Below, piece by piece: positions 9,840 to 32,000 of a stretch of DNA of 32,000 nt. The position numbers and the translations under genes were made by a program. The DNA comes from Candidatus Nanoarchaeia archaeon (GTDB lineage Archaea; Nanobdellota; Nanobdellia; Woesearchaeales; JANQNC01): contig JANQNC010000001.1 in assembly GCA_028279745.1 (NCBI GenBank), positions 480,001 to 512,000 on the forward strand. The letters run 5' to 3'. Position 1 is the stretch's first letter. The number at the start of each line of letters is the position of its first letter. A model generated the notes under the pieces. The model searched no databases and was not told the origin of the DNA. It saw only the letters and a program-made list of their open reading frames with translations.

Positions 9840-10354
9840 GTTCTTTTCTTAATAACTTTAGCAGGCACTCCTGCAACAACAGAATAAGGAGGGACACTTT
9901 TAGTGACAACTGAGCCAGCACCGATCACAGAGCCTTTGCCAACTGTGACCCCTGCAAGAATAATCGCTCTTGCCCCAATCCAGACATCATCTCCGATTAC
10001 AACTGGTTTAACTGTCTGGCTTTGCTTTCTTATAAGCTCCTTTTTTTTGAAAGAATGGTTGTGATCAAATATCATAACTTCAGGTCCAATCAAGACATCA
10101 TTACCAATCTTAATACTTTTGTGAGCTTCTGCAAAAAATCTTTCGTTTATCTCCACATTATCTCCAATATCGATTTTTATTGGCCCCCCAACATCACTAT
10201 GAGCTACTAGGTAAGCATTTTCTCTAATCAGAACATTACTGCCTATAGAAATCATGTTTGCATTAAAAGCTTTGATAGGTGTCTTTAACATGAAGCTAGC
10301 GCCGCAAGAAAAGAAGTTTCTAGCGTAAATCACACTTAAAATTCTTCTAAACAT
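9836..10354 (-). CDS. Hexapeptide-repeat (left-handed beta-helix) sugar O-acetyltransferase, WbbJ/LacA/WcaF-like
   Basis: 172 aa. It contains IGNDVLIGPEVMIFDHNH...VIGDDVWIGARAIILAGVTVGKGSVIGAGSVVTKSVPPYSVVAGVPAKVIKK. An SD GAGGT lies upstream, and 1 nt separates it from the upstream GT4 gene. Confidence 0.85.
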   Translation of the reverse strand: MFRRILSVIYARNFFSCGASFMLKTPIKAFNANMISIGSNVLIRENAYLVAHSDVGGPIKIDIGDNVEINERFFAEAHKSIKIGNDVLIGPEVMIFDHNHSFKKKELIRKQSQTVKPVVIGDDVWIGARAIILAGVTVGKGSVIGAGSVVTKSVPPYSVVAGVPAKVIKKRT

Positions 10355-13504: not shown

Positions 13505-14652
13505 AAGTAAACTTTATACACTGGCAATACAGCACATTCCCAAAGGGATTTCCAAAAACCAGCACAGGAGGTGCAGAACTAGCAATTTGGGAGATAGCTA
13601 AAAGAGTTTCTAAAAAACATAAAGTAAGAATATTTTGTTTAAGTGACAAAAACAGCATAACCAAAACACAAGGGATTGAATTTGTTAGAATACAAGCTCC
13701 CCTCCTTCTAAGAAGCAAATGGGTAAGATCCGACTATTACTTTTTCAAAGTTATGAGACAGATAAACAAAGAAAGCGAGAGTGAAAAACAAATAGTGCAC
13801 TGCATAAGCTGCATAGAGCCTGTTGCATATACAAATAACAAAGTGAGCATTGTTCTAAACATGCATAATGAAATAAAAAAATATCTGCCTTACCCCTCTT
13901 TCAAAAGAGAATGGTATGAAAAAAGGATTAACAGACTAGATTATGCAACTGGAGTATCCAACTATATCACAAAATCCTTCCTTAACTACTTTTTGTACGA
14001 TAAAAATTATGCAAAAACAATCTATAACGGAGCAGACTTTAAAATCTTCAACCCGCGAAACAGTAATAAGAGAAAAGTATGTAAAAAGTATGGCCTAGAC
14101 AGTAAAAAACCTTTGCTTTACTTCGGAGGCAGAATAATAAGAAGAAAAGGCTTACACCTCCTTCTAGACGCAATAGAAGGACTCGATGTGAATCTAGTTA
14201 TAACAGGCATTGTAGGAAAAACAAGTTCCGACAAAGATTATTACGAAGAGATACTTAAAAAAGTAAAAAATAAAGAAAACATAAAGTTTTTGGGGGACCT
14301 GAAAAAGAAAGATAGAGGAATTATAATAAGCTCAGCAGACCTGTCTTTCTGCCCATCAATTTGGGATGATCCCTCTCCACTTATGTGCTATGAATCCCAA
14401 ACCGCAGGCACGCCCATAATCGGGTTTAAGTGGGGAGGAATACCCGAACTAATAGAAACTGGAAAGACTGGAATCGTATGTAACCAAAAAGAATTAAAAA
14501 AGTACATAGTTAACTTAACAAAAAATAAGAAAAAATTAAAAGAAATGTCTAAAAATGCATACAATAAATCAAGAAAAGAATTTGATTGGGACAAAGTTGC
14601 AAAAGAATACTTGCGTATTTATGAGAGATTAAAAAATGACACTATCAACTAA
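13501..14652 (+). CDS. GT4-family glycosyltransferase
   Basis: 383 aa. The N-domain has STGGAELAIWEIAKRVSKKHKV. The C-domain has LLYFGGRIIRRKGLHLLLDA and MCYESQTAGTPIIGFKWGGIPELI. An ATGA overlap lies at 13501-13504. Confidence 0.8.
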   Translation: MKVNFIHWQYSTFPKGFPKTSTGGAELAIWEIAKRVSKKHKVRIFCLSDKNSITKTQGIEFVRIQAPLLLRSKWVRSDYYFFKVMRQINKESESEKQIVHCISCIEPVAYTNNKVSIVLNMHNEIKKYLPYPSFKREWYEKRINRLDYATGVSNYITKSFLNYFLYDKNYAKTIYNGADFKIFNPRNSNKRKVCKKYGLDSKKPLLYFGGRIIRRKGLHLLLDAIEGLDVNLVITGIVGKTSSDKDYYEEILKKVKNKENIKFLGDLKKKDRGIIISSADLSFCPSIWDDPSPLMCYESQTAGTPIIGFKWGGIPELIETGKTGIVCNQKELKKYIVNLTKNKKKLKEMSKNAYNKSRKEFDWDKVAKEYLRIYERLKNDTIN

Positions 14653-15253
14653 ACTATTCCACCTAGACAGGATACTATTCAGCTCATTCAGAAGACTTAG
14701 ACTCCAACTTTTAGGTGTGAACGTGGGGAAAAATGTGTGTTTAGGAAAAGGAATTAAAGTATTCAAAGATGACACCTCCACAATAAAAGTGGGTGACAAT
14801 TGTGAACTAAGCGAGTTTATATCACTTTACGCAATAAAAGGGGGAGAAATAAAACTAAATAAGTCTGTAAAAATAAATAACCATTCTAGCCTATTCTCAA
14901 GAGGAGGTAAAATACTGATCGACGAAGGAACCACCATATCCTCAAACTGTGGGATAAACACTGAAAAATCAAAAGTTAAGATTGGAAAAAACACTTCCAT
15001 AGCACCAAAAGTTGACATAATGGATAGAGACCATGTGTTCAGCAAGAAAAATGTGTTAATAAAAAAACAAGGCCACATAAGCAAACCAGTAGAAATTATG
15101 GACGGGTGCTGGCTTGGAGTGAAGGTGACTGTGTTAAAAGGAGTTAAGATAGGTAAAGGTTCTGTAATAGGTGCAAACAGCGTGGTCACAAAAAATATCC
15201 CTTCTTATAGCGTTGCAGTAGGCGCACCTGCAAAAGTTATTAAAAAAAGATAG
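14636..15253 (+). CDS. Hexapeptide-repeat sugar O-acetyltransferase, paralogue of 9836..10354
   Basis: 205 aa. It contains IGKNTSIAPKVDIMDRDHVF...IMDGCWLGVKVTVLKGVKIGKGSVIGANSVVTKNIPSYSVAVGAPAKVIKKR. The C-terminal ~70 aa align with the other acetyltransferase. Confidence 0.85.
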   Translation: MTLSTKLFHLDRILFSSFRRLRLQLLGVNVGKNVCLGKGIKVFKDDTSTIKVGDNCELSEFISLYAIKGGEIKLNKSVKINNHSSLFSRGGKILIDEGTTISSNCGINTEKSKVKIGKNTSIAPKVDIMDRDHVFSKKNVLIKKQGHISKPVEIMDGCWLGVKVTVLKGVKIGKGSVIGANSVVTKNIPSYSVAVGAPAKVIKKR

Positions 15254-15254
15254 C

Positions 15255-17474
15255 TTATAACGATCCAGAATAAACTTTCTGCAACTTATCATTTACTGAT
15301 TTAAGAGAATAATCTTTCTCTGCCTTGCTCCTTGCCTGTTTAGAAAGTGAATTCCTTAATGACTTATTTTTCATCAATAATAAAAGTTTATCTTTAAACG
15401 ATTTTTCGTCACTTAGTTCGGCAGTAAATCCTGCACTCCCAACAATTTCTGGGATAGCAAACGTGTTTGATGCAACGACAGGCAGACCATAACTAAGCGC
15501 TTCCGTTACAACTATGCCAAACGGCTCGTTTAGTGTAGGGAAAAAGAATATGTCTGAGGAACCCATTAACTCTTTTACTTTTCTCTCTTTAACAAAACCA
15601 AGGTGTTTTATCTTTCTGTTACTATTTATTATCTTTAAAGTCTTCTTGCTTTTTGGAGTGCTGCCAGTTATGATAAGTTCTGCATTCACTCCTTTAGAAA
15701 TTTCATCAAACAGTTTAACTGCTAAATCTCCTCCTTTTCTCTCAAAAACGGAAGCAACAAAAAGAACTTTAATCTTCTTGTTTGGTTTTTTGTTAAGTTT
15801 TGGCAGATCTATACCACAAGGAACAATATTTATCTTTTTAGCTAACTGATCTTTATCTCCCTCTGAAAGTTGGTTAAGAAAATGGGTTTTAGCAGTATTA
15901 GAACGTAAAAGGATAGATTTACAACTTTCTTGTTTAAGCGCTCTCAAAAGAACATTCCACTCACTAGGGCACGACCTTTCTCTGTCTATTATGTCTGCAG
16001 AATACACCCAATGAATATCAGAAAAAATAACATTACCATCACAATGGATCAAGTCATAATTATTATCACTGTTTACTTTCATAACTTCAGGATAATCTTT
16101 TGACCTAAAATAAGGCAACAGCTTTAGCCCCGAGTATTTGAAAAAAGAACCTAACCAGTTTATTGAAGGTTTTGTCATCGCAAGATACTCCTTTCGCATA
16201 TTGTAAAGACAGGTAAAGTCTAATTTGCTGAAGTAGTTCCCTTCCCCAAACTTGTTCTTACAAAACGCAGGAAGGTAGTAATCAACTTTTTCTGGTCCTG
16301 TTGAGAATAAAGAAGAAATATATCTGTAATTTCCAGAACTCATCGTGTTAATATCCCACGGGAAAAGCATCACTTTTAGCTTTACTGAGTTGTATAGATC
16401 AGACAGCTTCTTCTCTATCACTTCCGCTGAAAAATTCTTGATAAGATATTTTTTTCCTTCCCCTCCCAGCCTTCTTCGGAGTGCTTTATTACTGATTAGT
16501 TTTTTGAGTTTGGTTTTTAGCTGTGCAAGGTTGTCTTTCTTTATCAAAAAACCCGTTTTTCCATCAACAACTTGTTCAGGAATCCCACAAACACTTGTTG
16601 CAATAACCGGTAAAGAATGGTTCATTGCCTCGAAAATACTTAAAGGAGTTCCTTCACCTCTGCTCGGCAAACAGAATATATCTGCAGACTTATAAAGCTC
16701 TGAGAGCTTTTTGTCCGATACAGATTCAAATATAGTAACATTTCTTATCTTCTCTGCCACAACTTCCATCTTTATATCTGGTTTGCCCACCAAAATAAGT
16801 TTAGCATCATCTTGAATATCTTTAAACGCATCTAGAATTAGGTCCGCGCCTTTTCGTCTTAGTTGATGGCCCACCATCAAAACAACTGGTTTTTTGTTAG
16901 CTTTTTTCTTAAACTGTTTTTCAATCTTAATAGGTTGAGGAATTACTGCAGTTTTAGACTTATCAAAGCCTGTATCTTTTATGAAACTGTCTCTTGCAAA
17001 CTCCGAGAAAAAAACAACTTTTTTACAGTTGGGGTGGTTTAATACTTTAAGATATTTTCTTGAAAAATGTTTAATCCAAAATTTTGATAGCTTATGCTTA
17101 TCACTCAAGCCCCAAATCCTAACTGAGTCGAAGGGGGTGTTGTCAAAAAAATGAATATTTGGCTTATTTGTCATAGCAATCTTATCGTAAACTTGAACAA
17201 TGTCCACATCTTTCGGAACTCTAATATTGGCAAAGTACGAACTAAGCATCTGGAAAGGTTTGACATAGTGGTTTCCAGTTACATAAGGCACCCTTATCCT
17301 AGAAATGTCTAAGGATGACTGTTCTACCTCAACTTTTCTTAAACTTTTTATTTTTGGAAAATTTTTAGGAACAAAATAAGAAAAACTATCTGATTTAATA
17401 TCTGCAAGCTTAAGAAAGTAGCCAGTGCTGCCTCCAAAATGCTTATCCGTATATCCCGTCAACAATATATTCAT
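15255..17474 (-). CDS. Tandem double GT4 glycosyltransferase (two complete GT-B modules in one 739-aa polypeptide)
   Basis: There are two separate EX7E regions: RGEGTPLSIFEAMNHSLPVIAT in the first half and NEPFGIVVTEALSYGLPVVAS in the second half. The module boundary is near aa 375 (about nt 16350). An ATGA overlap joins it to the flippase gene at 17471-17474. Confidence 0.85.
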   Translation of the reverse strand: MNILLTGYTDKHFGGSTGYFLKLADIKSDSFSYFVPKNFPKIKSLRKVEVEQSSLDISRIRVPYVTGNHYVKPFQMLSSYFANIRVPKDVDIVQVYDKIAMTNKPNIHFFDNTPFDSVRIWGLSDKHKLSKFWIKHFSRKYLKVLNHPNCKKVVFFSEFARDSFIKDTGFDKSKTAVIPQPIKIEKQFKKKANKKPVVLMVGHQLRRKGADLILDAFKDIQDDAKLILVGKPDIKMEVVAEKIRNVTIFESVSDKKLSELYKSADIFCLPSRGEGTPLSIFEAMNHSLPVIATSVCGIPEQVVDGKTGFLIKKDNLAQLKTKLKKLISNKALRRRLGGEGKKYLIKNFSAEVIEKKLSDLYNSVKLKVMLFPWDINTMSSGNYRYISSLFSTGPEKVDYYLPAFCKNKFGEGNYFSKLDFTCLYNMRKEYLAMTKPSINWLGSFFKYSGLKLLPYFRSKDYPEVMKVNSDNNYDLIHCDGNVIFSDIHWVYSADIIDRERSCPSEWNVLLRALKQESCKSILLRSNTAKTHFLNQLSEGDKDQLAKKINIVPCGIDLPKLNKKPNKKIKVLFVASVFERKGGDLAVKLFDEISKGVNAELIITGSTPKSKKTLKIINSNRKIKHLGFVKERKVKELMGSSDIFFFPTLNEPFGIVVTEALSYGLPVVASNTFAIPEIVGSAGFTAELSDEKSFKDKLLLLMKNKSLRNSLSKQARSKAEKDYSLKSVNDKLQKVYSGSL

Positions 17475-18946
17475 TTTAACAATGATTTAGTTAATCCCTT
17501 TGCGTCTTTAAATATATTTCTATCAATCAACCTAACCGAAGCAAAATAAACTAAAGCGCCAAGAATTATGAAAAGTATCAAAACAAACACTGATTCGACT
17601 GGAAGAACTTTTTTACCAAAATGGATTGCAGCCAACATAACCAAAGAAGATATCAAAGGTGCCTTTAATACTTTCATGAAATCTCCAAAAGAAGCACCGA
17701 GTACCCTCGCAACATAATAAAAATTAAGCCAGTGAACTGAAAGAGCAGCAAGAGTCAAAGCCAAGCAGGTGCCTGTAAGACCAAAAAGTTTCGTTAAAGG
17801 GTATATTATTGCAGCCAGCACTATCAGCTGTATGAAGGTGGTACGTCTTAAAAGTTTGGGCTTGCCAACTGCTTTAAAGACTTCACCAGTAGTTGCAATG
17901 AGACTTCTTGATAAACCATAAACGCACAAGATCATCAAAGGATAAACCATGGCATTCCATTTTGGGCTGTAAACAATAGGAACAAGTTCGGGCGCAAGAA
18001 TAAATATCCCAAAAGAAGCAGGGAAAGCTACTAACGCAATATATCTAAACACTTTAAAGTATGCTGCTTTCAGTCTTCTCTTGTTATCCTGTATTGAAGC
18101 ATAAGCAGGCAAAACAACTTGAGATACAACAAAAGTAACATTAAACACTGCAAAATTTGCTAGGTGGAACGCTAAAGTGTAAACCCCTAAAGAAACAGTG
18201 CCTAGGATCTTACCTACAAAAGCATCATCCCCCTCATTCAGCAAGAATAAGAAAATAGTGGAGAAAAACATGTACTTACCAAAAACAAAGAGATCTTTTA
18301 TGTAACGAAAAGGAACAGTAAGCATCGGCTTGACAGGAAAGAACAAGAAAAACACAAAGAAATCAAACAACGCAGCAAATATGCCTCCTATAACTAAAGA
18401 CCACACCCCAAAACCGAAGAACGCTAAAGAAACAACTACGATGAATGTGGTTAGATGATTAATAAAACCTAGAACAGATGCTCTCTTGAACTGCATACGC
18501 TTCTTAATCAAGGCAATTGCAGGATGCACAAAAGATTTTATTACTAGTGTCACTGCCATAACTCTTATTATGACTAAAGATGAAGGGTTACTGAAAAAAT
18601 TAGAAAAGAGTGGTGCGAGAAAAAAAACTAACAGAAAAACAACAGATGAGATAAATATAGAAGAGTAAAATAAAGCAGTATAATACTGCCGCTCATGCTT
18701 CCTCTTGTTAATGAATGCGTCTGCAAGACCCCACCCTCCAAGCAGATGGATTGAGTTTATGACTAAATGCCCAATCGCAACAAGACCAAAATCTTCAGGC
18801 ACCAATAATCTTGCAAGAATAATCGTGCTGATAAAAGACAGTACTTTATTAGAACCAAAAGAGATAAACCTCCACAAAATACCTTTCATAGTTTTAGCGG
18901 TTAAAGTAGAGCCTTCACTCAAAAACGATAATAAAAACTTAAACAT
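17471..18946 (-). CDS. Wzx-like (MOP superfamily) oligosaccharide flippase
   Basis: About 491 aa with 12-14 hydrophobic helices. The N-terminus reads KGILWRFISFGSNKVLSFISTIILARLLVPEDFGLVAIG. I prefer ATG 18946, which lies 5 nt after the SD GAGGTG, over the track's GTG 18952, which begins with the last base of that SD. Confidence 0.85.
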   Translation of the reverse strand: MFKFLLSFLSEGSTLTAKTMKGILWRFISFGSNKVLSFISTIILARLLVPEDFGLVAIGHLVINSIHLLGGWGLADAFINKRKHERQYYTALFYSSIFISSVVFLLVFFLAPLFSNFFSNPSSLVIIRVMAVTLVIKSFVHPAIALIKKRMQFKRASVLGFINHLTTFIVVVSLAFFGFGVWSLVIGGIFAALFDFFVFFLFFPVKPMLTVPFRYIKDLFVFGKYMFFSTIFLFLLNEGDDAFVGKILGTVSLGVYTLAFHLANFAVFNVTFVVSQVVLPAYASIQDNKRRLKAAYFKVFRYIALVAFPASFGIFILAPELVPIVYSPKWNAMVYPLMILCVYGLSRSLIATTGEVFKAVGKPKLLRRTTFIQLIVLAAIIYPLTKLFGLTGTCLALTLAALSVHWLNFYYVARVLGASFGDFMKVLKAPLISSLVMLAAIHFGKKVLPVESVFVLILFIILGALVYFASVRLIDRNIFKDAKGLTKSLLK

Positions 18947-18984
18947 ATACACACCTCTCTTTGATATATAATTACGACCAAAAC

Positions 18985-23288: not shown

Positions 23289-23296
23289 ATTTAAAT
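23289..23296 (-). promoter_or_regulatory. Palindromic TATA-like box ATTTAAAT for the epimerase gene
   Basis: The reverse strand reads ATTTAAATAAAAACTAATTAAGAAAATTCTTAAAAAAGAGGTTTAATATG. The stop codon TAA (23293-23291) of the upstream small gene lies inside the box. Confidence 0.45.
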
Positions 23297-23590
23297 GTTT
23301 TTATTATTCTTTAACTTCTTTCTTACAAAATGAACTGCAAATAAAGCACCTACTGTGAACATAATATATACTGCCATGTCTGAAAACTCAGGAGTGTTAT
23401 AGAACTGCTGGCAAGTTCCCTCAGCACCATTAGGCCCTACAGGATAACCATTAACATCCAAACAAACACTACATTCGGAATCAACCTCGCAAGGATTATC
23501 TTCATATGTGCAAGGCAAGTTACATGCATCTTGAGCGATAACATTCGATAAAAGAACCAATGCTAAAAATAAAAATAAAAAATGTTTCAT
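23291..23590 (-). CDS. Small secreted six-cysteine protein with a PEF-CTERM-like sorting tail
   Basis: 99 aa. The signal peptide is MKHFLFLFLALVLLSNVIA|QD. The ~46-aa ectodomain has 6 Cys (C-x3-C-x6-C-x5-C-x2-C-x16-C). The tail is PEF + SDMAVYIMFTVGALFAVHFV + RKKLKNNKNI. A TAAAATG junction joins it to the upstream gene. Confidence 0.75.
   Translation of the reverse strand: MKHFLFLFLALVLLSNVIAQDACNLPCTYEDNPCEVDSECSVCLDVNGYPVGPNGAEGTCQQFYNTPEFSDMAVYIMFTVGALFAVHFVRKKLKNNKNI
23294..23392 (-). other. PEF-CTERM-like C-terminal sorting signal (motif, TM helix, basic tail)
   Basis: PEFSDMAVYIMFTVGALFAVHFVRKKLKNNKNI. Confidence 0.6.
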
Positions 23591-23591
23591 T

Positions 23592-23876
23592 TTACTTTTT
23601 CTTTCGTATTAATGTGAAAGCAGCTCCGCCCGCAACTATAGCCGCACCAATACCTAAAGTGGTAAGTTCCGGAACTTCTGATTCCTCACCAAAAGGCGGG
23701 TAACAGTAGTTAGTCTTATTTTCTCCTCCACAGTACCAACCCTCTCCACAGACATCATCACAGAAAAGGTCTCCACCTTCACCTGCAACACATATCTCAT
23801 CTCCAGGGATACATTGTGCAAAAGCAACTGAAGCAGCCAATAATACAAAAACAAAATATATCATTAGTTTACTCAT
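23592..23876 (-). CDS. Small secreted six-cysteine protein with a PEL variant of the PEF-CTERM-like tail
   Basis: 94 aa. The signal peptide is MSKLMIYFVFVLLAASVAFA|QC. The ~48-aa Gly/acidic-rich ectodomain has 6 Cys (C-x6-C-x9-C-x3-C-x5-C-x8-C) and one N-K-T sequon. The tail is PEL + TTLGIGAAIVAGGAAFTLI + RKKK. Confidence 0.75.
   Translation of the reverse strand: MSKLMIYFVFVLLAASVAFAQCIPGDEICVAGEGGDLFCDDVCGEGWYCGGENKTNYCYPPFGEESEVPELTTLGIGAAIVAGGAAFTLIRKKK
23595..23672 (-). other. PEF-CTERM-like C-terminal sorting signal (PEL variant)
   Basis: PELTTLGIGAAIVAGGAAFTLIRKKK. Confidence 0.55.
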
Positions 23877-23877
23877 T

Positions 23878-24936
23878 TTATTTACCTCCTAATCTTTTCT
23901 TTCTAACTCTTAAAAATCCAACAGCACCAATAGCTAAAGCAGTCCCTGCTGCTACTGTGCCCATCTCAGGAATCTCAAATCCAAAATCAAATGGTGTTTC
24001 TTCTTCACTCAAGTCAATAACATCATTACCACAGCTAAGGCTTGAATGCACAATAACTTTACCATCTGAAGGATCAGGATTGCCTATACAGCTAAGAGGA
24101 ATCTTAACCTCAATAACATAAGTGTCTTGACGACCCGCAAATATGCCTGAACCAGAAGCAGGATCAGTTCCTGAGTAACCTTCTAAAGGAATATTGTCTC
24201 GTTTAACATATGCGACTTCAGCACAGCCTTCTTGAATATTGTCACATTCGTCAACGTGAGAATGTCCGTTTTCATCTATTATAGTTCCATCAACCCAGTC
24301 AGGCTCCTCACAAATGTCACCCATTCTTAGAGATGGATCACTTCCATCCCCATAGTTTGTGTGGTTGTTCAAAACAATACCATATGTGTATGAGAAAGGA
24401 TTCAAAACTTTTATTTCCAGATCCCCCATCCAGTAAGGATCCTCCCCATCATAAATTATTCCTGGAGGCATAGATGTAATTATTGCAAAATAAGCGTTGT
24501 TTTCATCATTATCAAAATAAATTGCTTCAATATCAAACTGCTCACCAAAAACAGGCTCTAAAACATTAAACGGATTGGTGACGGGTTCATCATAATCCTG
24601 CTGATTAGCACCTTTACCTTTTATGTGGATACCTGTTGCGGAAAAGTTACTTGCTAAATCCGTAAAGTATGATGGTTGCCCATGTTGTTCAGGATCTCTG
24701 TTGTTCTCAACAACATAGTCAACTGTTGAATGAGAAGGCTTCCATGCCTGCCTTGCAGTGGCTTCACTGTTTGAACAAGTGTTCGTGCCATTGTTTAACT
24801 CACATAAACCAACTCTTATATCGTTGTCATTAAGCCCCCAGTCTTCAAGATCTCCATCAACTGTATATGAGGCTGCCAAAACTCCACTAATAGAAACTAC
24901 AAGCGCGAAAAGCACCATAAAAATTTTATTTTTCAT
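23878..24936 (-). CDS. Secreted acidic surface protein with a PEM variant of the PEF-CTERM-like tail
   Basis: 352 aa. The signal peptide is MKNKIFMVLFALVVSISGVLA|AS. The mature N-terminus YTVDGDLEDWG resembles the start of CBM9/DOMON-like carbohydrate-binding modules, but the similarity is weak. It has 8 Cys and the sequons NGT, NFS and NHT. The tail is PEM + GTVAAGTALAIGAVGFL + RVRKKRLGGK. An SD GAGGT lies 6 nt upstream. Confidence 0.8.
   Translation of the reverse strand: MKNKIFMVLFALVVSISGVLAASYTVDGDLEDWGLNDNDIRVGLCELNNGTNTCSNSEATARQAWKPSHSTVDYVVENNRDPEQHGQPSYFTDLASNFSATGIHIKGKGANQQDYDEPVTNPFNVLEPVFGEQFDIEAIYFDNDENNAYFAIITSMPPGIIYDGEDPYWMGDLEIKVLNPFSYTYGIVLNNHTNYGDGSDPSLRMGDICEEPDWVDGTIIDENGHSHVDECDNIQEGCAEVAYVKRDNIPLEGYSGTDPASGSGIFAGRQDTYVIEVKIPLSCIGNPDPSDGKVIVHSSLSCGNDVIDLSEEETPFDFGFEIPEMGTVAAGTALAIGAVGFLRVRKKRLGGK
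23881..23970 (-). other. PEF-CTERM-like C-terminal sorting signal (PEM variant)
   Basis: PEMGTVAAGTALAIGAVGFLRVRKKRLGGK. Confidence 0.55.
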
Positions 24937-25089: not shown

Positions 25090-26403
25090 ATGAAGATAAG
25101 TGTATTCGGATTAGGATATGTAGGATGTGTTAGTAGTGCAGCATTTGCACACATGGGACATAAGATAATAGGAGTGGATCTAAACAAAATAAAAGTAGGA
25201 TTAATCAATGACGGGAAAAGCCCAATAGTAGAAAAAAACCTCGGGAAATATATCAAGGCAGGCATAAAAAACAAAAGACTAAGAGCTACAACAGACACTG
25301 AAGATGCTGTTTTAAATTCAGATGTTTCTTTAATATGTGTGGGAACACCAAGCAAAAAGTCAGGAGGACTAGACTTAAAATATACAAAAGCAGTATGCGA
25401 GGCAATAGGTAAAACCCTAAAGAAGAAAAAAGGCAATCATATCGTAATATTCAAATCAACAATGCTTCCAGGAAGCGCAGAAGATGTACTGACACCTGTG
25501 CTAGAAAAAGCATCAGGCAAAAAAGTCGGAAAAGGATTTGATGTTGTAAGTAATCCAGAATTCCTAAGAGAAAGTACAGCAATATATGACTTTTTCAATC
25601 CACCATCAACAGTAATCGGTGCTAATAACAAAAAAGCGGCAGACACAGTAGAGAAAATCTACAAAGGAGTGAAAGGGCCTTTTGTAAAGACCACCATCAA
25701 GACAGCAGAAATGGTTAAGTATACAGACAACTGTTTCCACGGATTAAAAGCAGCCTTCGGAAACGAGATAGGTGACGTATGTAAAAAAGTTGGAGTGGAT
25801 GGACATGAACTAATGAGAATATTCTGCTTGGACACCAAATTAAATCTATCACCTTACTACTTCAAACCAGGGTTCCCCTTCGGAGGAAGCTGTTTGCCTA
25901 AAGATGTAAGAGGAATGAATGCAGAAGCTAAAAAAGTTGGTTTAAGTTTACCAATATTAAAAAACATAATCCCAAGCAATAGAAACCAAATAGATATCTG
26001 TACAAATATGATCCTTAACACAAAAAAGAAAAACATAGGTATCTTGGGGTTAAGCTTTAAGGCAGATACAGACGACATAAGGGAAAGCCCAATCATAGAC
26101 ATAATCCACAATCTAAGGAAGAAAAGGAAAAATGTCATGATATATGACAGCAATGTCTTAACAGCACAAAAGTTTGGTGCGAATAAAGATGTTATCGAGA
26201 AAGAAGCACCGCACTTAATGGATCACTTCACACATTCACTTGCTGAACTGGTGAGAAAATCTGATGTTATAGTGTTTGAAAACAAAGACAAAGAATTTGA
26301 GAAAGTTTTACCTATGATAAAAAAGAAACACATAGTTATAGACTTTGTTAGATTCACATCACCCGACAAAGTAAAAGGAGTTTACGAGGGACTATGCTGG
26401 TAA
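25090..26403 (+). CDS. algD: Nucleotide-sugar 6-dehydrogenase, GDP-mannose 6-dehydrogenase (AlgD)-like
   Basis: 437 aa. Its motifs match my recollection of Pseudomonas AlgD better than Ugd: ISVFGLGYVG, LINDGKSPIVE, ICVGTPSKK, NPEFLRESTAI, GFPFGGSCLPKDV (catalytic Cys), LGLSFKADTDDIRESP and the extreme C-terminus EGLCW (AlgD ends EGICW). Ugd-type enzymes read GTGYVG and GGSCFPKD instead. The symbol denotes the family, not proven specificity. Confidence 0.85.
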   Translation: MKISVFGLGYVGCVSSAAFAHMGHKIIGVDLNKIKVGLINDGKSPIVEKNLGKYIKAGIKNKRLRATTDTEDAVLNSDVSLICVGTPSKKSGGLDLKYTKAVCEAIGKTLKKKKGNHIVIFKSTMLPGSAEDVLTPVLEKASGKKVGKGFDVVSNPEFLRESTAIYDFFNPPSTVIGANNKKAADTVEKIYKGVKGPFVKTTIKTAEMVKYTDNCFHGLKAAFGNEIGDVCKKVGVDGHELMRIFCLDTKLNLSPYYFKPGFPFGGSCLPKDVRGMNAEAKKVGLSLPILKNIIPSNRNQIDICTNMILNTKKKNIGILGLSFKADTDDIRESPIIDIIHNLRKKRKNVMIYDSNVLTAQKFGANKDVIEKEAPHLMDHFTHSLAELVRKSDVIVFENKDKEFEKVLPMIKKKHIVIDFVRFTSPDKVKGVYEGLCW

Positions 26404-27167
26404 ACAAAAAAAATTTATTTTTTGTAATTTTTATTCTTTCAATTAGTCTTGTTCTTGCATATGAAGAACAACAAGGCCAAGACTCATACTTGGCAATATG
26501 GGCAGAACACCCATCATTTTATGCTAACTATACCGGCGTGGGAGACTGCACAATAAGATTTTATGACTATGATGCATGGACAAACCCAGTATACATGGAA
26601 GGAACAGACGGGTTATATCAAACAGAATACGAGTTAAGTGAAGGAGAACATGACTGGACAGTTTCTTGTTATGATGGAAATGAAAACTTACTTTTAACAG
26701 ATACCGTTAATGTAGGTGTTGAGGTTCTCGAAGAAGACGATTATGGAAAGATAGAATGGAAAAACGGCAATCCATTTGGAAAAGACGAGGAAGAATATAC
26801 TCTGGTTGACTATAGACTGGCAGCTGCAGACTCTTCAGTGCTAGATGAAGGAGTAGACACTTCAGCAAGAATCACACTTAAACAAACCGACATATACGGC
26901 AGACCAACACTATGTTACAGACCCGACTTCAGTGAATTTTTTACAGAGGTTACAGGGAATTGCAGAGACTGTGAAGCAGACGGAATATGCACTTTGATAA
27001 GCTACTCAGATGGTGAAGTTGTTTTTGATGTTACACACTTCTCAAGCTTCGGCGTTGATGGAAGTCCTGTTGCATATGAAGCACCAGAATTTTCAGTTAC
27101 AGGAATAATAGCTACAGTCATAATTGCAGGAATTGCACTATTTTTGTATCATAAAAAAACACAGTAA
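26394..27167 (+). CDS. Secreted acidic surface protein with a PEF-CTERM-like tail
   Basis: 257 aa. The signal peptide is MLVNKKNLFFVIFILSISLVLA|YE. It has 6 Cys and an NYT sequon. EGEHDWTVSCYDGNEN resembles the G-x-H-x-[WY]-x-V-x-[AC]-x-D-x-x-G-N strand motif of bacterial/archaeal Ig-like domains, but the similarity is weak. The tail is PEF + SVTGIIATVIIAGIALFLY + HKKTQ. The gene overlaps the dehydrogenase gene by 10 nt. Confidence 0.8.
   Translation: MLVNKKNLFFVIFILSISLVLAYEEQQGQDSYLAIWAEHPSFYANYTGVGDCTIRFYDYDAWTNPVYMEGTDGLYQTEYELSEGEHDWTVSCYDGNENLLLTDTVNVGVEVLEEDDYGKIEWKNGNPFGKDEEEYTLVDYRLAAADSSVLDEGVDTSARITLKQTDIYGRPTLCYRPDFSEFFTEVTGNCRDCEADGICTLISYSDGEVVFDVTHFSSFGVDGSPVAYEAPEFSVTGIIATVIIAGIALFLYHKKTQ
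27084..27164 (+). other. PEF-CTERM-like C-terminal sorting signal
   Basis: PEFSVTGIIATVIIAGIALFLYHKKTQ. Confidence 0.6.
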
Positions 27168-27187: not shown

Positions 27188-28924
27188 ATGAAAAAGCTAA
27201 CACTGCTAATACTTGTATCATTATTCATTCTGCCAGCCGTGCTTGCATATAAAGTCGATCCTGACGAACTTACTTATACTGAAAAAGAAGTGGTGGGATA
27301 TTCCGCACTAAATATAAGAGGGATAGACAACCAAGGATACACACAAGGAAAATCATTCAAATGGAAAGTTGATATGTACTTGCCAGAAGAAACTTTTGTA
27401 TACGCACAACCAGTATCAAAAATAGTACTTAGGATAAGGAATGCGACAAAACCTTTCACTGTGCCGAAAGAGGCAGTGTTTACAGGGATGGAAAGGTATC
27501 CCTTAACAGGAAACTTTAGGACCGTTACAGGAATTAAAGACTTAGACGTAGTATATTACCATTCTATGTGGTCTGTTGGAGGAAATAGCATAGCTTCCAC
27601 ACCTCAACAAAATACTATTGCAGTCAACAACGGGAGATATCAAAAAGTTACAATACACCTACCTGAAAAACCCATACTCAAAAAGATAGGTGATGCTGAA
27701 AGACCAAAAGATGTCATCAAGATGGACGAGTCTACCTACTTCTTCCCACACATAGAACTGCCAGCAGTTGTATACTATGATCCCGGGAAAAAGTCTGCCG
27801 TGCAGAAAGGACTGATCCTAATCTTAATACTAGCAACCATCGCATTATTTACGCTAGCAAAATTCATACCCTCATTCAACATAAAATCAAAACACATGCT
27901 GCTTGCATTAATACTTACATTCTTACTTATGGCCCAATTCGCACAAATAGTCCCAAACCCAGAAAAAACAGTCCTAAACTTACAAAAATCAACAAAACCC
28001 TTTGAAACAGATAAAAAAGTGCTTTCGACATTTACCACCTATCTCTGGAACACAATAGGGTTAACAAAAACTATCGACTATGCAATCATAGGAAACAGCT
28101 ACAAATGCGGGAGTAAACAATACTTCTTAACAGAAAGAAGCGCTGAAAAAATATTTGTTGTGGACAAGTATGAAAACTACAGATGTTCGAGAAACCTATT
28201 TGAAAATTTCAACTCATCCAAAATAGAAGTGATGAGCATCGAAGAGATAGAAGAAGAACTAAGCAAAGAGGGCAGCTTAAGACATCCTTTCAAAAAGTTG
28301 TTCATAACAAATGCTAAACTGATAACATTCCTATCTGCAATACTGTTCTCTTTCTTAAGTGCATATCTAATATTGCTGGTAGTAGAGATTAAGAAAACAA
28401 AAATATGGCTTGCTGCAATAATAATGTTTGTTTCATATTTTTTACTCAAACTGTTCTATACCCTCATAGGCTACATTGCACATATGCCTGTAAGTTATCA
28501 CGGAAACCTTCCTTTCGGAATGACTTTAACCGCATTCTTCATGCCCGACACAGTCTTTGGAGGGAACACAGTAAGGCTTATCTTTTCTGTACTCGGGGTA
28601 CTTATATTAATTTTCTCAAGAATGTTTAGAAGAAAAATAAATATTGCGTTAGTTTTTGTACCTATACTTTTTATGATACTATTGTTGGCACTGCCACAAA
28701 CAGAGTTCATGGCAAAAAGAGAAGTAATAACCGTAATGTCTGGAGAAGGATTCTTGTATGACCAGAGAATAGGGAACGCCTTCTCTCTAAAAGAGATGTA
28801 TACTAAGATGAGGAACGAAGATTATAAACAAGTCCAAAATTATCTATGCACAAGAGATGATCTAAAAGACTCTCTCACACAAAAAGTATTAGCATGCGAA
28901 AGTAAAGGGGATGATACAAAATGA
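27188..28924 (+). CDS. Uncharacterised polytopic membrane protein with an N-terminal ~190-aa exported domain
   Basis: 578 aa. The signal peptide is MKKLTLLILVSLFILPAVLA|YK, followed by a soluble domain and 2 TM helices. A ~120-aa loop (with Cys in YKCGSKQ and YRCSRN) precedes about 5 more TM helices and an ~80-aa soluble C-terminus. I recognise no family motif. An ATGA overlap joins it to the next gene at 28921-28924. Confidence 0.75.
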   Translation: MKKLTLLILVSLFILPAVLAYKVDPDELTYTEKEVVGYSALNIRGIDNQGYTQGKSFKWKVDMYLPEETFVYAQPVSKIVLRIRNATKPFTVPKEAVFTGMERYPLTGNFRTVTGIKDLDVVYYHSMWSVGGNSIASTPQQNTIAVNNGRYQKVTIHLPEKPILKKIGDAERPKDVIKMDESTYFFPHIELPAVVYYDPGKKSAVQKGLILILILATIALFTLAKFIPSFNIKSKHMLLALILTFLLMAQFAQIVPNPEKTVLNLQKSTKPFETDKKVLSTFTTYLWNTIGLTKTIDYAIIGNSYKCGSKQYFLTERSAEKIFVVDKYENYRCSRNLFENFNSSKIEVMSIEEIEEELSKEGSLRHPFKKLFITNAKLITFLSAILFSFLSAYLILLVVEIKKTKIWLAAIIMFVSYFLLKLFYTLIGYIAHMPVSYHGNLPFGMTLTAFFMPDTVFGGNTVRLIFSVLGVLILIFSRMFRRKINIALVFVPILFMILLLALPQTEFMAKREVITVMSGEGFLYDQRIGNAFSLKEMYTKMRNEDYKQVQNYLCTRDDLKDSLTQKVLACESKGDDTK

Positions 28925-29742
28925 GATTCAAAAAACTATTGACTGCACTGTTACTTTCGTTCCCACTAGTGCAAGCTCAAGGAATAAGCAGCATGCTAGA
29001 CACGGCACAATACAGTAGAGGAATGATGCTGTTCTTCTTATGTTTAGCAATATTAATAGCATTCCCTTTCATCAACAAACAGATAAAAAGCATCATGCTT
29101 ATACCCTTCCTTTTCATCCTGGGAAGAGGGCTTATAAGGATTGGAGAACAAGACATAGTAAAAGCATTTACAAGTGTGCTTCCAGGACTAAAAGTGGGCG
29201 TGCCGCTTGCAATTGTTCTAGTTGTAGTGAGCGCAATACTTTTTGTGCCAGTGTATCTGTTACGTAAAGCAAATATAATAAAACCAGAGACAACTGACTC
29301 TTTAGAAAAATACTTCAAAGAAGGAACAAAAAAAGGCCACGACATAGAAAGCCTGAAAAAAGCACTGTACCTTCAAGGAATATCAAAAATAGATGTGGAT
29401 GATGCAGCACAAAGTGCAATATCTTCCCCATTACTTAGAAAAATAACTGAAAAAGTAAAAGGTAAGAAAAGCGTTACTTCACTAAAAGACTATTTTGACC
29501 AAGGTCTGAAAAAAGGCTACTCAGTTAGTGCTCTTAAAATGACTTTAGTTAAAAAAGGATTTGAACAAAGCGTAGTAGAAAAAGCTTCAGATAGATTCAA
29601 AAAACCAGAAAGCTACCTGGAAGAATACATACAAAAAGGACTGAAAAAAGGATTTAAGATCGAATCTTTAAAAAAAGCACTGTTAAAACAAGGTGTTGAT
29701 TCAAAAGATCTTGAAAATGCAATTAACAAGGTGACAAAATGA
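28921..29742 (+). CDS. Uncharacterised membrane protein with three C-terminal ~40-aa helical repeats
   Basis: 273 aa. The signal-like N-terminus MRFKKLLTALLLSFPLVQA|QG is followed by three hydrophobic helices. After LLRKANIIK come three repeats of the L-x-x-Y-[FI]-x-x-G-L-K-K-G-[YFH]-x-[IV]-x-[SA]-L-K-x-x-L-x-x-x-G type. Confidence 0.75.
   Translation: MRFKKLLTALLLSFPLVQAQGISSMLDTAQYSRGMMLFFLCLAILIAFPFINKQIKSIMLIPFLFILGRGLIRIGEQDIVKAFTSVLPGLKVGVPLAIVLVVVSAILFVPVYLLRKANIIKPETTDSLEKYFKEGTKKGHDIESLKKALYLQGISKIDVDDAAQSAISSPLLRKITEKVKGKKSVTSLKDYFDQGLKKGYSVSALKMTLVKKGFEQSVVEKASDRFKKPESYLEEYIQKGLKKGFKIESLKKALLKQGVDSKDLENAINKVTK
29299..29730 (+). repeat. Three protein-level repeats (aa 127-166, 187-226 and 231-270 of the 273-aa protein)
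   Basis: The repeats are SLEKYFKEGTKKGHDIESLKKALYLQGISKIDVDDAAQSA, SLKDYFDQGLKKGYSVSALKMTLVKKGFEQSVVEKASDRF and SYLEEYIQKGLKKGFKIESLKKALLKQGVDSKDLENAINKV. Confidence 0.8.
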
Positions 29743-30113
29743 AATTTTTAGACACTAAACTATTCGCAATCATCTCTAACCTTCCATTAATAGGCGGTCT
29801 AATGACCCTATTATTCATAATCTCAATAATAAACAATAAACAACTGCTTCCAGAGTCCACAAGGAAAGGAATAGCTATGCAGTTCTTTGCACCGCTGGTC
29901 TACTTTATAGGAAGACTGGTTTCATTCCTACTTTGGTTCTTCTTTGGGCTAATGATCCTAGAAAAAATAATATCCTGGATTTCACTAATATGGTTATTAG
30001 GGTGTTATATCTACATGCTGAAAAACGTGCTGACAATAATAAAAGACAAGAAAGCAGACTATGGTTTATTTGATGTTCCTTTAAAGGTCATAGAAAAGTT
30101 CTTATGGCACTAA
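29739..30113 (+). CDS. Small (124 aa) membrane protein with 3-4 TM helices, function unknown
   Basis: The sequence reads MKFLDTKLFAIISNLPLIGGLMTLLFIISIINNK...AMQFFAPLVYFIGRLVSFLLWFFFGLMILEKIISWISLIWLLGCYIYML. An ATGA overlap joins it to the upstream gene, with the SD AGGTGA upstream. It resembles DUF4870-type small membrane proteins only loosely. Confidence 0.6.
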   Translation: MKFLDTKLFAIISNLPLIGGLMTLLFIISIINNKQLLPESTRKGIAMQFFAPLVYFIGRLVSFLLWFFFGLMILEKIISWISLIWLLGCYIYMLKNVLTIIKDKKADYGLFDVPLKVIEKFLWH

Positions 30114-30973
30114 ATTTTAGAAGAACTTATCTTCTTCCATTCATCCTTAAGATTTTTGTTTTGCTTTAAGTCAAGATACGCACTTACCCATATGTACAAA
30201 TCTAAAAAAAGATAGGGCCAAGCGTAAATGCTAGTGAATAAATATCTAAGATCTGAAACTGACCTCTGTCGCTTAATGTTCATTCCTGCTTTAGTCATCT
30301 GCCACCAACCATATCTCACCCTTTTCTTCTCAACAATATAATCATTAAGCGTGTGAGCAGGATTGACTAGAACTTTTGCATCGGGCTCGTAGACTATGCT
30401 GTATCCTTTATTCTTTATATTCCAACCCAGAAGAGCATCTTCAACAGTATTTGATTTATCAATACTAACAAAAGCTTTCTTTCTTACTGCAAACAAATAA
30501 CCGTTAAGCGCAAACAAAGAACCTGCCTCTGATTCTTTTGATCTTCGTTCGTGCAAAACATCCCACCCAAACTTTTGAAGGTTAGCAAAGAAATTATCAC
30601 ACAGATAAGGAACTGTTCTGCCCATAACCGCACCTATTGAGCTATCATTAAAATGAGGCAGAAGCTTTTTTATAGAGCCTTGTTTTATTATCAAATCAGC
30701 ATCGGTGAAAACAACAAGCTCATTCCTCGCTTTTTTCATTATAACATTTTGAGCAGAACCTTTACCAGAACGGGCAGATTCTTCAATAAGTTTTATCCTC
30801 TTATCTTTTCTTGCATACTTTTTTACAACATCCACAGTATAATCTGTGCATGCAGAAGCAACCACAATAAGCTCATCAGTCTTATTTAGTTCGGGCAAAA
30901 TGCTACTTACTGCTCTCCCAATACTTTTTCCTTCATTATATGCACAGATCCCCACAGTAATGTTGTTAACCAT
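30110..30973 (-). CDS. GT2-family glycosyltransferase
   Basis: Motifs are ITVGICAYNEGKSIGRAVSSIL, LIVVASACTDYT and LVVFTDADLII (DxD). There is a C-terminal hydrophobic segment. I prefer ATG 30973 (MVNNITV...) over the track's TTG 30976. Confidence 0.85.
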   Translation of the reverse strand: MVNNITVGICAYNEGKSIGRAVSSILPELNKTDELIVVASACTDYTVDVVKKYARKDKRIKLIEESARSGKGSAQNVIMKKARNELVVFTDADLIIKQGSIKKLLPHFNDSSIGAVMGRTVPYLCDNFFANLQKFGWDVLHERRSKESEAGSLFALNGYLFAVRKKAFVSIDKSNTVEDALLGWNIKNKGYSIVYEPDAKVLVNPAHTLNDYIVEKKRVRYGWWQMTKAGMNIKRQRSVSDLRYLFTSIYAWPYLFLDLYIWVSAYLDLKQNKNLKDEWKKISSSKI

Positions 30974-30996
30974 CAAATAAAAAATGAAAAACAGAC

Positions 30997-31068: not shown

Positions 31069-32000
31069 ATGAAGATGATCTGGATAAATATTGTTGCAGC
31101 ATTCCTAATAGCTTGCGTTTCATCACTGTTCTTCTTTAAAGTAATCACACGAAAACTTAAATCAAAAAAAATATTCAGACTAGACACAAACAAGTATTCA
31201 AAAGAAAGAAAAGTACCTGCACTAGGAGGGATAGCAGCGTTCATGGGATTCATATTTACAATAACAGTGATGATGGGTGTTTTTGCAATATTTGATAAGA
31301 ATGTAATTGACACAAACATACTAATGTTTGGCTTATTGACAGTAACCTTACTTGCCCTACTTGGAATGGTAGATGACATCCTAGAGTTTACAAGAAAAAG
31401 AACGAAACCTCTGATGGCAATATTCGCAACAATACCTTTAGTTGCAGCAAACTACACCAAACAAACAATAGTCAATGTCCCGTTCATAGGAAATGTAGAA
31501 TTTGGAATACTATACGCATTAGTGATAATCCCAATAATCATCGTATTCTGTTCAAATGCAGTCAACATCTTAGCAGGATTAGATGGATTGGTTCCGGGGA
31601 TGGGCGCAATAGCAACATTAGGGTTACTGATAATATCATACATGAAGTTTAACACAACTGCAGTATTATTTCTGACTACTCTACTTGCAGTGCAGATGAC
31701 TTTATACAAGTATAACCGTTACCCTTCCAGGATACTTCCCGGCAACATAGGAACCTTATTTATTGGGGGTGCAATAGCCGTAGGAGCAATAATAGGAAAC
31801 ATAGAACGGGCATTGGTAATAGTTATGGTACCCTATGGTCTTCACTTCTTGTTATACATACGAACCTGGTTTAAGTTTACACCAAAAGCGATGGGCGATT
31901 ACACAACAAAAAAAGGGGTGCTGAAAACAAGAGCAAAAAAGTCATATGGGTTGACAATCTTCTTGATGAAACACTTCAAAAACATGACTGAAAAAAGTAT
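31069..32000 (+). CDS. Polyprenyl-phosphate HexNAc-1-phosphate transferase (MraY/WecA/GPT family; archaeal AglH-like), 310 codons; the C-terminus lies beyond the right edge
   Basis: Absent from the ORF track because it has no stop inside the window. My translation reads MKMIWINIVAAFLIACVSS...VPALGGIAAFMGF...LLGMVDDILEF...FCSNAVNILAGLDGLVPGMG...YPSRILPGNIGTLFIGGAIAVG... The D-D motif, N-x-x-N-x-x-A-G-x-D-G-L and P-G-x-x-G-S/T-x-x-x-G are hallmarks of this family. Confidence 0.9.
   Translation, partial: MKMIWINIVAAFLIACVSSLFFFKVITRKLKSKKIFRLDTNKYSKERKVPALGGIAAFMGFIFTITVMMGVFAIFDKNVIDTNILMFGLLTVTLLALLGMVDDILEFTRKRTKPLMAIFATIPLVAANYTKQTIVNVPFIGNVEFGILYALVIIPIIIVFCSNAVNILAGLDGLVPGMGAIATLGLLIISYMKFNTTAVLFLTTLLAVQMTLYKYNRYPSRILPGNIGTLFIGGAIAVGAIIGNIERALVIVMVPYGLHFLLYIRTWFKFTPKAMGDYTTKKGVLKTRAKKSYGLTIFLMKHFKNMTEKS

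Follow-up and report, generated by a model that had tools for sequence, protein, structure and literature searches.

Results

Gene organization

We analyzed a 32,000-nucleotide stretch of DNA (the window; positions 480,001 to 512,000 of the forward strand of contig JANQNC010000001.1, GenBank assembly GCA_028279745.1, ~35% GC) from a Candidatus Nanoarchaeia archaeon, focusing on three adjacent genes for membrane proteins near its end, here named A, B, and C. Gene A (578 amino acids [aa], 27188-28924) was defined from its open reading frame (ORF), hydropathy, an AlphaFold2 (AF2) model, and homologues; gene B (273 aa, 28921-29742) from its ORF, hydropathy, and alignment; and gene C (124 aa, 29739-30113) from its ORF and hydropathy, all three on the + strand. 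Upstream on the same strand lie a UDP-glucose/GDP-mannose dehydrogenase gene (25090-26403), recognized by three Pfam domains, and an ORF (26394-27167) for a 257-aa secreted protein, hereafter the cargo, which ends in a PEF motif, a transmembrane (TM) helix, and a basic C-terminal tail. This tail, read directly as ...EAPEFSVTGIIATVIIAGIALFLYHKKTQ, has the tripartite motif-TM-basic shape. The dehydrogenase gene shares 10 nt with the cargo gene, and a GAGGG element is located within the 20-nt gap between the cargo gene and A. ATGA overlaps connect the stop codon of A to the start of B (28921-28924) and the stop codon of B to the start of C (29739-29742), and the stop codon of C shares 4 nt with a convergent glycosyltransferase (GT) gene of the GT2 type (30110-30976, - strand). 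The original prediction, made from the letters of this stretch, had placed the dehydrogenase, cargo, A, B, and C genes at positions that were matched exactly when the ORFs were rechecked, and both of the ATGA overlaps that it described are present in the sequence. Among related loci on other contigs (designated by L numbers), the A/B overlap is retained in L001, L003/L004, L006, L008, and L014, and the cargo-A gene order is also found in L001. Judged from these sequences, A, B, and C are real, conserved genes that look co-transcribed.

Architecture and conserved residues of protein A

Hydropathy and the AF2 model agree that A consists of a signal peptide and six TM helices, i.e., seven hydrophobic helices in all. 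The model was built from a 25-sequence family alignment and has a mean pLDDT of 79.3 (83-94 for most TM helices) and a pTM of 0.74; it supersedes an earlier two-sequence model that was unusable (pLDDT 35.8). The signal peptide (residues 1-20) is followed by a beta-rich ectodomain of ~180 aa (residues ~21-198), the TM1-TM2 region (199-254; helices at 199-226 and 234-254), an alpha/beta ectodomain of ~110 aa (~259-368), TM3 and TM4 (369-400 and 403-431), an outer loop (432-458), TM5 and TM6 (459-483 and 486-501), and a helical tail of ~75 aa (503-578) that was modeled with low confidence. Three Lys/Arg-rich loops (227-236, 400-405, and 477-485, containing PSFNIKSKH, EIKKTK, and SRMFRRKIN, respectively) fall on the cytoplasmic side; by the positive-inside rule, both ectodomains, the 432-458 loop, and the tail are thus predicted to be outside. 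The signal peptide, exported domain, loop, and tail of the original prediction are confirmed by this topology, and its count of TM helices beyond the signal peptide is reduced from about seven to six.

The most conserved residues of A lie in a few short motifs. According to alignments that included eight diverse orthologues, the PNP motif at the outer end of TM2 (residues 256-258; 27953..27961, + strand) contains the invariant N257 and P258, and the outer loop between TM4 and TM5 (28481..28576, + strand) contains HMPVSYHG (residues 432-439), with P434, Y437, and H438 invariant, together with GGNTVR (residues 458-463), for which the consensus GGNxxR is nearly invariant. Directly after TM6, also on the outer side, is PQTEFMAKR (residues 503-511; 28694..28720, + strand), where P503, T505, K510, and R511 are invariant. 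The invariant polar set of A therefore comprises N257, Y437, H438, T505, K510, and R511. Two acidic residues of the ectodomains, D169 and D297, are not kept throughout the family.

Proteins B and C

Protein B possesses its own signal peptide (MRFKKLLTALLLSFPLVQA), three TM helices, and a cytoplasmic tail of three ~41-aa helical repeats, in agreement with the three TM helices and three cytoplasmic repeats proposed previously; the earlier estimate of three to four TM helices for C (124 aa) is narrowed to three hydrophobic helices. Alignment of B revealed two conserved motifs (29014..29154, + strand), SRGM (residues 32-35) on the outer side before TM1 and RGLIRIGEQD (residues 69-78) at the outer end of TM2, and the invariant residues are S32, R33, G34, M35, R69, G70, R73, E76, D78, and S85. 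The invariant polar motifs of both proteins, A and B, are thus all situated at predicted outer helix ends or in outer loops. Such a cationic set, accompanied by His, Tyr, Asp, and Glu residues at the outer leaflet, is consistent with a site that binds the (pyro)phosphate head group of a lipid, by analogy with the established chemistry of WaaL, Wzy, and LCP enzymes.

The repeats of B (R1-R3, residues 124-164, 185-225, and 230-271; 29290..29733, + strand) are predicted three-helix units with weak likeness to RecX (NCBIfam, E 8e-4 and 19.7 bits vs a cutoff of 216; Pfam RecX_HTH1, E 0.056; PDB profile match to RecX 3c1d, E 1.9), and one JGI homologue of B is automatically named OraA/RecX. For the membrane core, the B protein of L006 alone scored against DUF5656 (PF18900; E 0.005, 16.6 bits vs a cutoff of 23.3), and window B had no score against this Pfam model. 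Three repeat copies are found in the clade of the window, one in L006, L007, and L008, and none in L015 or in the bacterial fusion proteins described below. C was detected by hidden Markov model (HMM) search only in archaeal loci with a repeat-bearing B and in neither L015 nor the bacterial loci. This joint presence and absence suggests that C pairs with the repeat domain and hints that C works with the RecX-like cytoplasmic part of B.

Family and fold searches

No family was recognized for A, B, or C in Pfam, NCBIfam, PADLOC, or PDB sequence profiles, so that the earlier statement that no family motif is recognizable in the trio holds. The HMM matches obtained for the three proteins and their orthologues were at noise level (Adenine_glyco 0.067, AuxA 0.027, Claudin 0.066, and DUF4870 6); a methyladenine-glycosylase match of 13 bits in an ectodomain was set aside as a chance hit, and a defense-system reading of the trio was ruled out by the lack of any PADLOC match. 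When searched against PDB sequences, the full family profile retrieved TPR proteins only, through the TPR region of the relatives described below, and trimmed profiles of A, B, and C retrieved nothing. Foldseek comparison of the A model with the PDB gave nothing at E<=1e-3. The best match, to the N-domain of an M1 peptidase (7v9o, E 1.6e-3, TM-score 0.13), covered the N-terminal beta-sandwich only, and the others were a CARDB domain (E~1) and GPCR-like noise. Comparison with BFVD returned nothing.

Several classes of membrane protein were considered individually. A, B, and C had no match to the exosortase/archaeosortase models PF09721 and TIGR04178 at E<=1; five A orthologues had no Wzy_C match in Pfam at E<=10, and no ligase or polymerase was present among the top 50 Foldseek PDB matches. 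The GT-C class (PMT_2, STT3, and ArnT-like) yielded neither an HMM nor a fold match, and the six TM helices of A compare with at least 11 taken, along with an acidic motif in the first outer loop, as the mark of that class; neither D169 nor D297 is invariant in the family. No rhomboid or CPBP match to the trio was obtained in Pfam or NCBIfam, none was present among the Foldseek PDB matches of A, and no transporter fold appeared among the Foldseek matches of the A model. GtrA (PF04138) was matched by neither window C (E<=1) nor the C proteins of L001, L006, and L007 (E<=10), and Pfam found no TPR repeats in window A. Of the folds suggested originally (Wzy/ligase, archaeosortase, rhomboid, and CPBP), Foldseek against the PDB thus found none for A. 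Uncharacterized membrane proteins are common in such genomes. We found no description of the A/B/C family in the published literature, and we consider it new both as a protein family and as a fold; its biology is proposed below from context.

Relatives of the trio and fusion of A to B

Close relatives are few. A word-indexed search of 5.8 billion proteins turned up no more than one or two homologues of each of the three proteins (57-61% identity). L001 and L003/L004, three further metagenome contigs, keep A, B, and C in the same order with aa identities of 57-68%. In more distant lineages A/B/C are conserved at 24-33% identity, and a profile search of 1.84 billion representatives returned 27 remote relatives of A with E values down to 1e-83. 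A scan of GTDB genomes with the close pair gave no match, the same scan with a six-sequence alignment gave one Ca. Iainarchaeum metagenome-assembled genome only, and a metagenome scan gave L004 again and nothing further. One apparent relative, P0034 (a 1061-aa Fz-domain protein, E 7e-5), was rejected as a spurious tail match.

Three forms of the family were distinguished. The clade of the window (window, L001, and L003/L004) has a 578-aa A protein that lacks TPR repeats, plus a separate B with three repeats and C. In the second form (L006, L007, L008, L011, L014, and L015), A is extended by a TPR tail to ~650-750 aa and a separate B gene comes after it. The third form consists of fused proteins of 1200-1700 aa (P0008-P0011, P0013, and P0016; 1249-1691 aa) that hold the B core in the same polypeptide, in the order basic cytoplasmic N-terminus, TM helix, A module, long TPR region, and C-terminal three-TM segment. 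This last segment corresponds to the B core, complete with SRGM and RG(I/L)IR(I/V)GEQD. Strong Pfam TPR matches were obtained C-terminal to the A module in P0008, P0009, P0011, P0016, and P0017, and the TPR region of some fused proteins includes CBM60 or TSP3 calcium-binding repeats. The tail of the window-clade A (residues 503-578) has an aligned counterpart in its relatives only in the stretch ahead of their TPRs; the TPR region would therefore be dispensable, given that this clade does without it.

The fused forms come from Patescibacteria (Candidate Phyla Radiation, CPR) and the unfused forms are archaeal. Thus, P0012 is the patescibacterial protein MBU1118973.1, the contig of P0013 encodes RuvA, UvrB, Lon, and FemAB, the L011 contig has an archaeal-type primase gene upstream (as read from the sequence), and that of L001 carries DUF2080. 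On the same grounds, the genome of the window is most likely that of a DPANN archaeon. The family is very rare, with 27 representatives among 1.84 billion, and by these assignments it is confined to DPANN and CPR. The joining of A and B in one polypeptide in Patescibacteria shows that the two act as a functional unit. The outward location of the A tail and of the fused TPR/CBM region means that B must start outside, and this accounts for the separate signal peptide of most free-standing B proteins (window clade, L006-L008, and L011; it is missing from L015).

These features bring up a reading in which the proteins are a non-enzymatic scaffold, anchor, or adhesin of the envelope, the ectodomains and TPR repeats docking surface-layer proteins, glycan chains, or host ligands. 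Such a function could be relevant to the episymbiotic life of DPANN and CPR organisms, to which the family is restricted, and it would suit the large ectodomains, the TPR, CBM60, and TSP3 modules of the relatives, the resemblance of the N-terminal ectodomain of A to nothing other than non-catalytic beta-sandwich structures (7v9o and CARDB), and the lack of a detectable catalytic family. We nevertheless regard it as unlikely, because the strongest conservation lies in the short polar motifs at the membrane-water boundary of A and B rather than in the ectodomains or TPRs, as is typical of a catalytic or lipid-binding site, and because the genes are tightly linked to specific biosynthetic enzymes.

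Glycan biosynthesis genes at the related loci

To the right of the trio, the convergent GT2 gene (30110..30976, - strand; assigned by Pfam) encodes a 288-aa protein with a single C-terminal hydrophobic stretch, and the next gene (31069..32000, + strand) encodes a polyprenyl-phosphate sugar-phosphate transferase of the PF00953 family (Glycos_transf_4; WecA/MraY/AglH-type) that runs off the window and is 334 aa long in L002, a Logan contig that continues the window by 5.4 kb. We compared the window with 12 related loci, mostly on short contigs and representing ~10 lineages. A glycosyltransferase cluster was present at every A-B locus with usable flanks, and the link to glycan assembly drawn in the original prediction is upheld across this set.

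Orthologues of the GT2 protein stand beside A-B in L001, L003, L006, L008, L010, and L012 (42-65% identity), and PF00953 orthologues are near A-B in L001, L006, L008, L010, L012, and L013 (38-71%). Among the archaeal loci with separate A and B genes plus C, the window and L002 have GT2, PF00953, an exosortase, PE-tailed cargo, and the Wzx flippase gene at 17471-18952; L001 has GT2 (61%), PF00953 (71%), an exosortase (57%), and PE-tailed cargo, with no exporter seen; L003/L004, of the window clade, has GT2 (65%, in L003) on a contig that ends before the positions of PF00953, the exosortase, and cargo; the Iainarchaeum-type loci L006 and L008 have GT2 (48-49%) and PF00953 (40-42%) with no exosortase, cargo, or exporter seen; and the likely archaeal L007 has no GT2 within 7 kb and likewise no PF00953, exosortase, cargo, or exporter. 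The likely archaeal L015, with separate A and B genes and no C, lacks GT2 and PF00953 and has an exosortase (35%) and a PEY-tailed cargo, with no exporter seen. The four patescibacterial loci have fused A-B, no C, and neither exosortase nor cargo: L010 carries GT2 (47%), PF00953 (38%), and two ABC-2 pairs; L012 carries GT2 (42%), PF00953 (38%), and one ABC-2 pair; L013 carries no GT2, an adjacent PF00953 gene (39%), and one ABC-2 pair; and L005 carries neither GT2 nor PF00953, with no exporter seen. Many GT1 and GT2 genes and methyltransferase genes fill the bacterial loci, and a radical-SAM/SPASM gene recurs in L006, L010, L012, and L013. No Wzy_C, LCP, PMT_2, or STT3 match was found within the 4-10 kb flanks of L010, L012, and L013, leaving the A-TPR-B protein as the only large, ectodomain-bearing polytopic protein there.

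Between the window archaeon and Patescibacteria, the GT2 proteins are 42-47% identical and the PF00953 proteins ~38% identical, and the two genes occur in the same adjacent order (L010, 13583-15558; L012, 18486-20520). This likeness in sequence and order suggests inter-domain transfer of a glycan module, and A-B seems, by the same comparisons, to have moved between domains in the company of GT2 and PF00953. At L013, the gene caller reported a 353-aa + strand ORF without a Pfam match (2523-3584), and tblastn placed the PF00953 orthologue on the - strand of the same segment, so that the call is likely on the wrong strand.

The GT2 protein itself raises the possibility that A, B, and C serve a synthase-type glycosyltransferase as its partner in translocation or co-polymerization, in which case A-B-C would form the channel, C would be PgaD/IcaD-like, and the TPR region would be a PgaA/BcsC-like scaffold. 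The catalytic domain of the enzyme does resemble those of PgaC, IcaA, and NodC and lacks a membrane channel of its own. PgaC_IcaA is the best-scoring NCBIfam model for GT2 and its orthologues (79-85 bits; 80 bits for the window protein, confined to the catalytic domain) and NodC also scores; D, DAD, and VED motifs and a KRVRY sequence resembling QxxRW are synthase-like by eye; and the best PDB match is 6yv7, which we take to be a minimal cellulose-synthase-like archaeal enzyme. It is also the most tightly linked neighbor, being conserved at 42-65% identity across domains of life. The scores, however, come nowhere near the PgaC cutoff of 422, A and B carry their conserved motifs on the outside and away from a cytoplasmic GT, the PF00953 transferase and the Wzx or ABC-2 exporters indicate lipid-carrier pathways rather than synthase-dependent secretion, and neither the GT2 orthologue (absent near L005, L013, and L015) nor C (absent from the bacterial loci) is a constant companion. 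We therefore judge a role as GT2 partner to be quite improbable.

The remainder of the window is also rich in such genes. Positions 925-22322 form an unusually dense glycan island with about a dozen GT1/GT4-type and GT2 glycosyltransferase genes, including one for a 739-aa double-GT protein (15255-17474, - strand), together with hexapeptide-repeat acetyltransferase-like ORFs (9836-10354, - strand; 14636-15253, + strand) and the MOP/Wzx flippase gene (17471-18952, - strand). Two divergently transcribed genes encode PMT_2 (GT-C)-like polytopic proteins detected by HMM, one of 547 aa (6223-7866, - strand) that also matches the Leptospira LA_3751/LA_3752 putative glycosyltransferase family and one of 637 aa (7926-9839, + strand); they are candidate terminal glycosyltransferases of the island.

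An archaeosortase-family gene and PE-tailed proteins

An exosortase/archaeosortase-family gene (335 aa) was found on L002 at 14921-15928, equivalent to window positions 32108-33115, i.e., ~110 bp past the window end and two genes downstream of the trio. Its product reached 37.7 bits with PF09721 and, against a cutoff of 23, 44.8 bits with the TIGR04178 signature, and PCSGI, NILRV, and FHSN sequences containing Cys, Arg, and His, respectively, are evident by eye. The protein falls below the cutoff of every named subfamily, including ArtC (35.7 bits vs a cutoff of 100), the known partner of PEF-CTERM (PMC5244752); among named families it comes closest to exosortase E from the VPEID system (E 2e-15), where it is also below cutoff. 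Related genes are located at 5595-6590 in L001 and 2615-3508 (- strand) in L015. The premise that this island lacks a sortase, polymerase, or ligase, from which the original prediction had argued, consequently falls: the window edge hid the gene at 32108-33115, and the window itself holds the two PMT_2-like proteins. With a bona fide family member two genes downstream the trio is not needed as a sortase, and that assignment was ruled out.

In addition to the cargo, three secreted proteins of 99, 94, and 352 aa (23291-23590, 23592-23876, and 23878-24936, all - strand) were seen on direct reading to end in PEF, PEL, and PEM motifs, respectively, each with a TM helix and a basic tail; the 94- and 99-aa proteins are Cys-rich. 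NCBIfam sorting-signal models, including PEF-CTERM, gave no match at E<=1 for the 257-, 352-, and 99-aa proteins, and the 94-aa protein had a weak LPXTG-anchor match (15.5 bits vs a cutoff of 15.9). Archaeosortase substrates bear tripartite tails (PMC6098224), and the PE-tailed proteins are likely substrates of the nearby archaeosortase-family enzyme. The latter may define a new subfamily that goes with PE[F/L/M/Y]-type tails in DPANN-like archaea.

Only two divergent archaeal lineages, the window clade and L015, combine A-B with an exosortase and a PE-tailed protein. In L015, where A is 26% identical to that of the window, the divergent neighbor of A is an exosortase 35% identical to the window-clade enzyme, and a 441-aa secreted protein encoded convergently toward B ends in ...IPEYDLPVLLLTIFLSSFAFLSIRK..., comprising IPEY, a TM helix, and RK. 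No exosortase or PE-tailed ORF was found within 7-10 kb of A-B in L005, L006, L007, L008, L010, L012, or L013. The leading idea of the original prediction had been that the trio could process, anchor, or glycan-ligate the PEF-tailed cargo; recast as an accessory to the archaeosortase, it would present, modify (e.g., glycosylate), or anchor the cargo encoded upstream. The gene order of cargo, A, B, C, and then a sortase two genes on in both the window and L001 agrees with this role, as does the renewed pairing of A-B with an exosortase and a PEY-tailed protein in distant L015. Against it are the seven lineages in which A-B lacks such company, the signature and Cys/Arg/His motifs of the sortase, which needs no extra peptidase, and the fact that exosortase systems reside in exopolysaccharide loci anyway, according to the account of Haft 2006 cited in PMC6098224, so that their co-location with A-B may be indirect. 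Hence, the sortase part of the claim is dropped, and the accessory role as a whole strikes us as very unlikely. The exosortase and PEY cargo of L015 may nevertheless reflect a lineage-specific link to sorted cargo, for example its use as a glycan acceptor.

Discussion

The original prediction singled out the trio as the best candidate in the window for an undescribed function, and these genes are indeed uncharacterized and the most novel item of the island. Our tentative proposal, which we hold with less than even confidence, is that A-B(-C) carries out a late extracytoplasmic step on a polyprenyl-phosphate-linked surface glycan, most plausibly its transfer or ligation to a surface acceptor. 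A, B, and C would be subunits of one integral-membrane complex of an undescribed family, with A-B as the obligatory core, C as an archaeal accessory subunit, and the working site at the outer membrane face. The glycan would be started in the cytoplasm by the neighboring PF00953 transferase, extended by GT2 and other GTs, and exported by the Wzx flippase in the window or by a Wzm/Wzt-type ABC transporter in the bacterial loci. A-B(-C) would then move it from the lipid carrier onto the surface acceptor, and in most relatives the TPR repeats located between A and B would keep the acceptor or a partner in place. Sorting of the PE-tailed proteins would fall to the dedicated archaeosortase-family enzyme and not to A-B-C. 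In this scheme, the active site itself, its substrate, and the chemistry that it performs are all points that we infer.

A number of observations weigh against this proposal. The trio has no sequence or fold likeness to any glycosyltransferase, ligase, or polymerase in Pfam, NCBIfam, or PDB profiles (with fold compared for A); A has only six TM helices, and Foldseek gave no GT-C/Wzy-like architecture for A+B+C. The two GT-C-like proteins of the window could perform the terminal transfer. In L005, the 10 kb around A-B contain neither a GT2 nor a PF00953 orthologue, L015 also lacks both and has an exosortase and PEY cargo instead, and the TPR region has been lost from the window-clade A. The context, finally, derives from only ~10 lineages. 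A bolder version is doubtful in our estimation: A-B(-C) would represent a new type of glycan transferase/ligase without structural precedent, acting outside the cytoplasm as a functional analogue of WaaL, oligosaccharyltransferases, or LCP enzymes. In DPANN and CPR it would join lipid-carried glycans to proteins of the surface or to the envelope, it would have been exchanged between domains along with GT2 and PF00953, and in the window lineage it would use PE-tailed, archaeosortase-processed proteins as acceptors.

For DPANN archaea and CPR bacteria, whose lifestyle is one of attachment to host cells, the cell surface is of central importance, yet most of their envelope genes are unannotated. 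Against that background, A-B is a small, sharply defined family that spans two domains of life, has no detectable relatives of known function or fold, and always occurs in surface-glycan loci. Should A-B(-C) turn out to be the machine for terminal glycan transfer or assembly, it would supply the ligase step missing from these loci and add a new fold to the membrane enzymes; should it act as a scaffold only, it would still be a marker of a glycan module that apparently moved between archaea and bacteria. The corrected picture of the island includes its own archaeosortase-family enzyme and at least four candidate PE[FLM]-tailed substrates.

Comparison with known systems

The exosortase/archaeosortase systems (EpsH and ArtA to ArtE) are represented at the locus of the trio by a family member and four PE[FLM]-tailed proteins, but the trio itself lacks their signature, the neighboring enzyme fits the general TIGR04178 model only, and the NCBIfam PEF-CTERM model gives the tails no score. 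Gtr-type systems combine GtrB, a GT2, with GtrA, a small membrane protein, and GtrC, a GT-C protein. The membrane-associated GT2, the ~120-aa multi-TM C, and the large polytopic A with its outer-face motifs recall this arrangement, but C has no PF04138 match and is missing from the bacterial and L015 loci, the GT2 protein scores best on PgaC/NodC-type rather than GtrB-type models, and B has no counterpart. With the TPR-bearing GT-C enzymes (TMTC-type and PMT_2-type), most A relatives share a membrane module joined to extracytoplasmic TPRs and a glycan-locus context. Unlike those enzymes, A, B, and C give no PMT_2/STT3 signal, though the PMT_2-like pair of the window was easily detected, A has no GT-C fold match, and the window-clade A has no TPR.

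The remaining comparison is with WaaL, PglL, and WsaB of the Wzy_C superfamily and with Wzy. The trio has no Wzy_C match and A no Foldseek match to a solved ligase or polymerase, and the trio differs in distributing 6+3(+3) TM helices over two or three polypeptides and in the large N-terminal beta ectodomain of A. The step proposed for A-B is nevertheless the same as theirs, namely action at the outer face on an exported polyprenyl-diphosphate-linked glycan. Like them, A-B has conserved Arg, Lys, and His residues at the membrane boundary and is encoded in loci with a PF00953-type transferase, GTs, methyltransferases, and a Wzx or ABC exporter.

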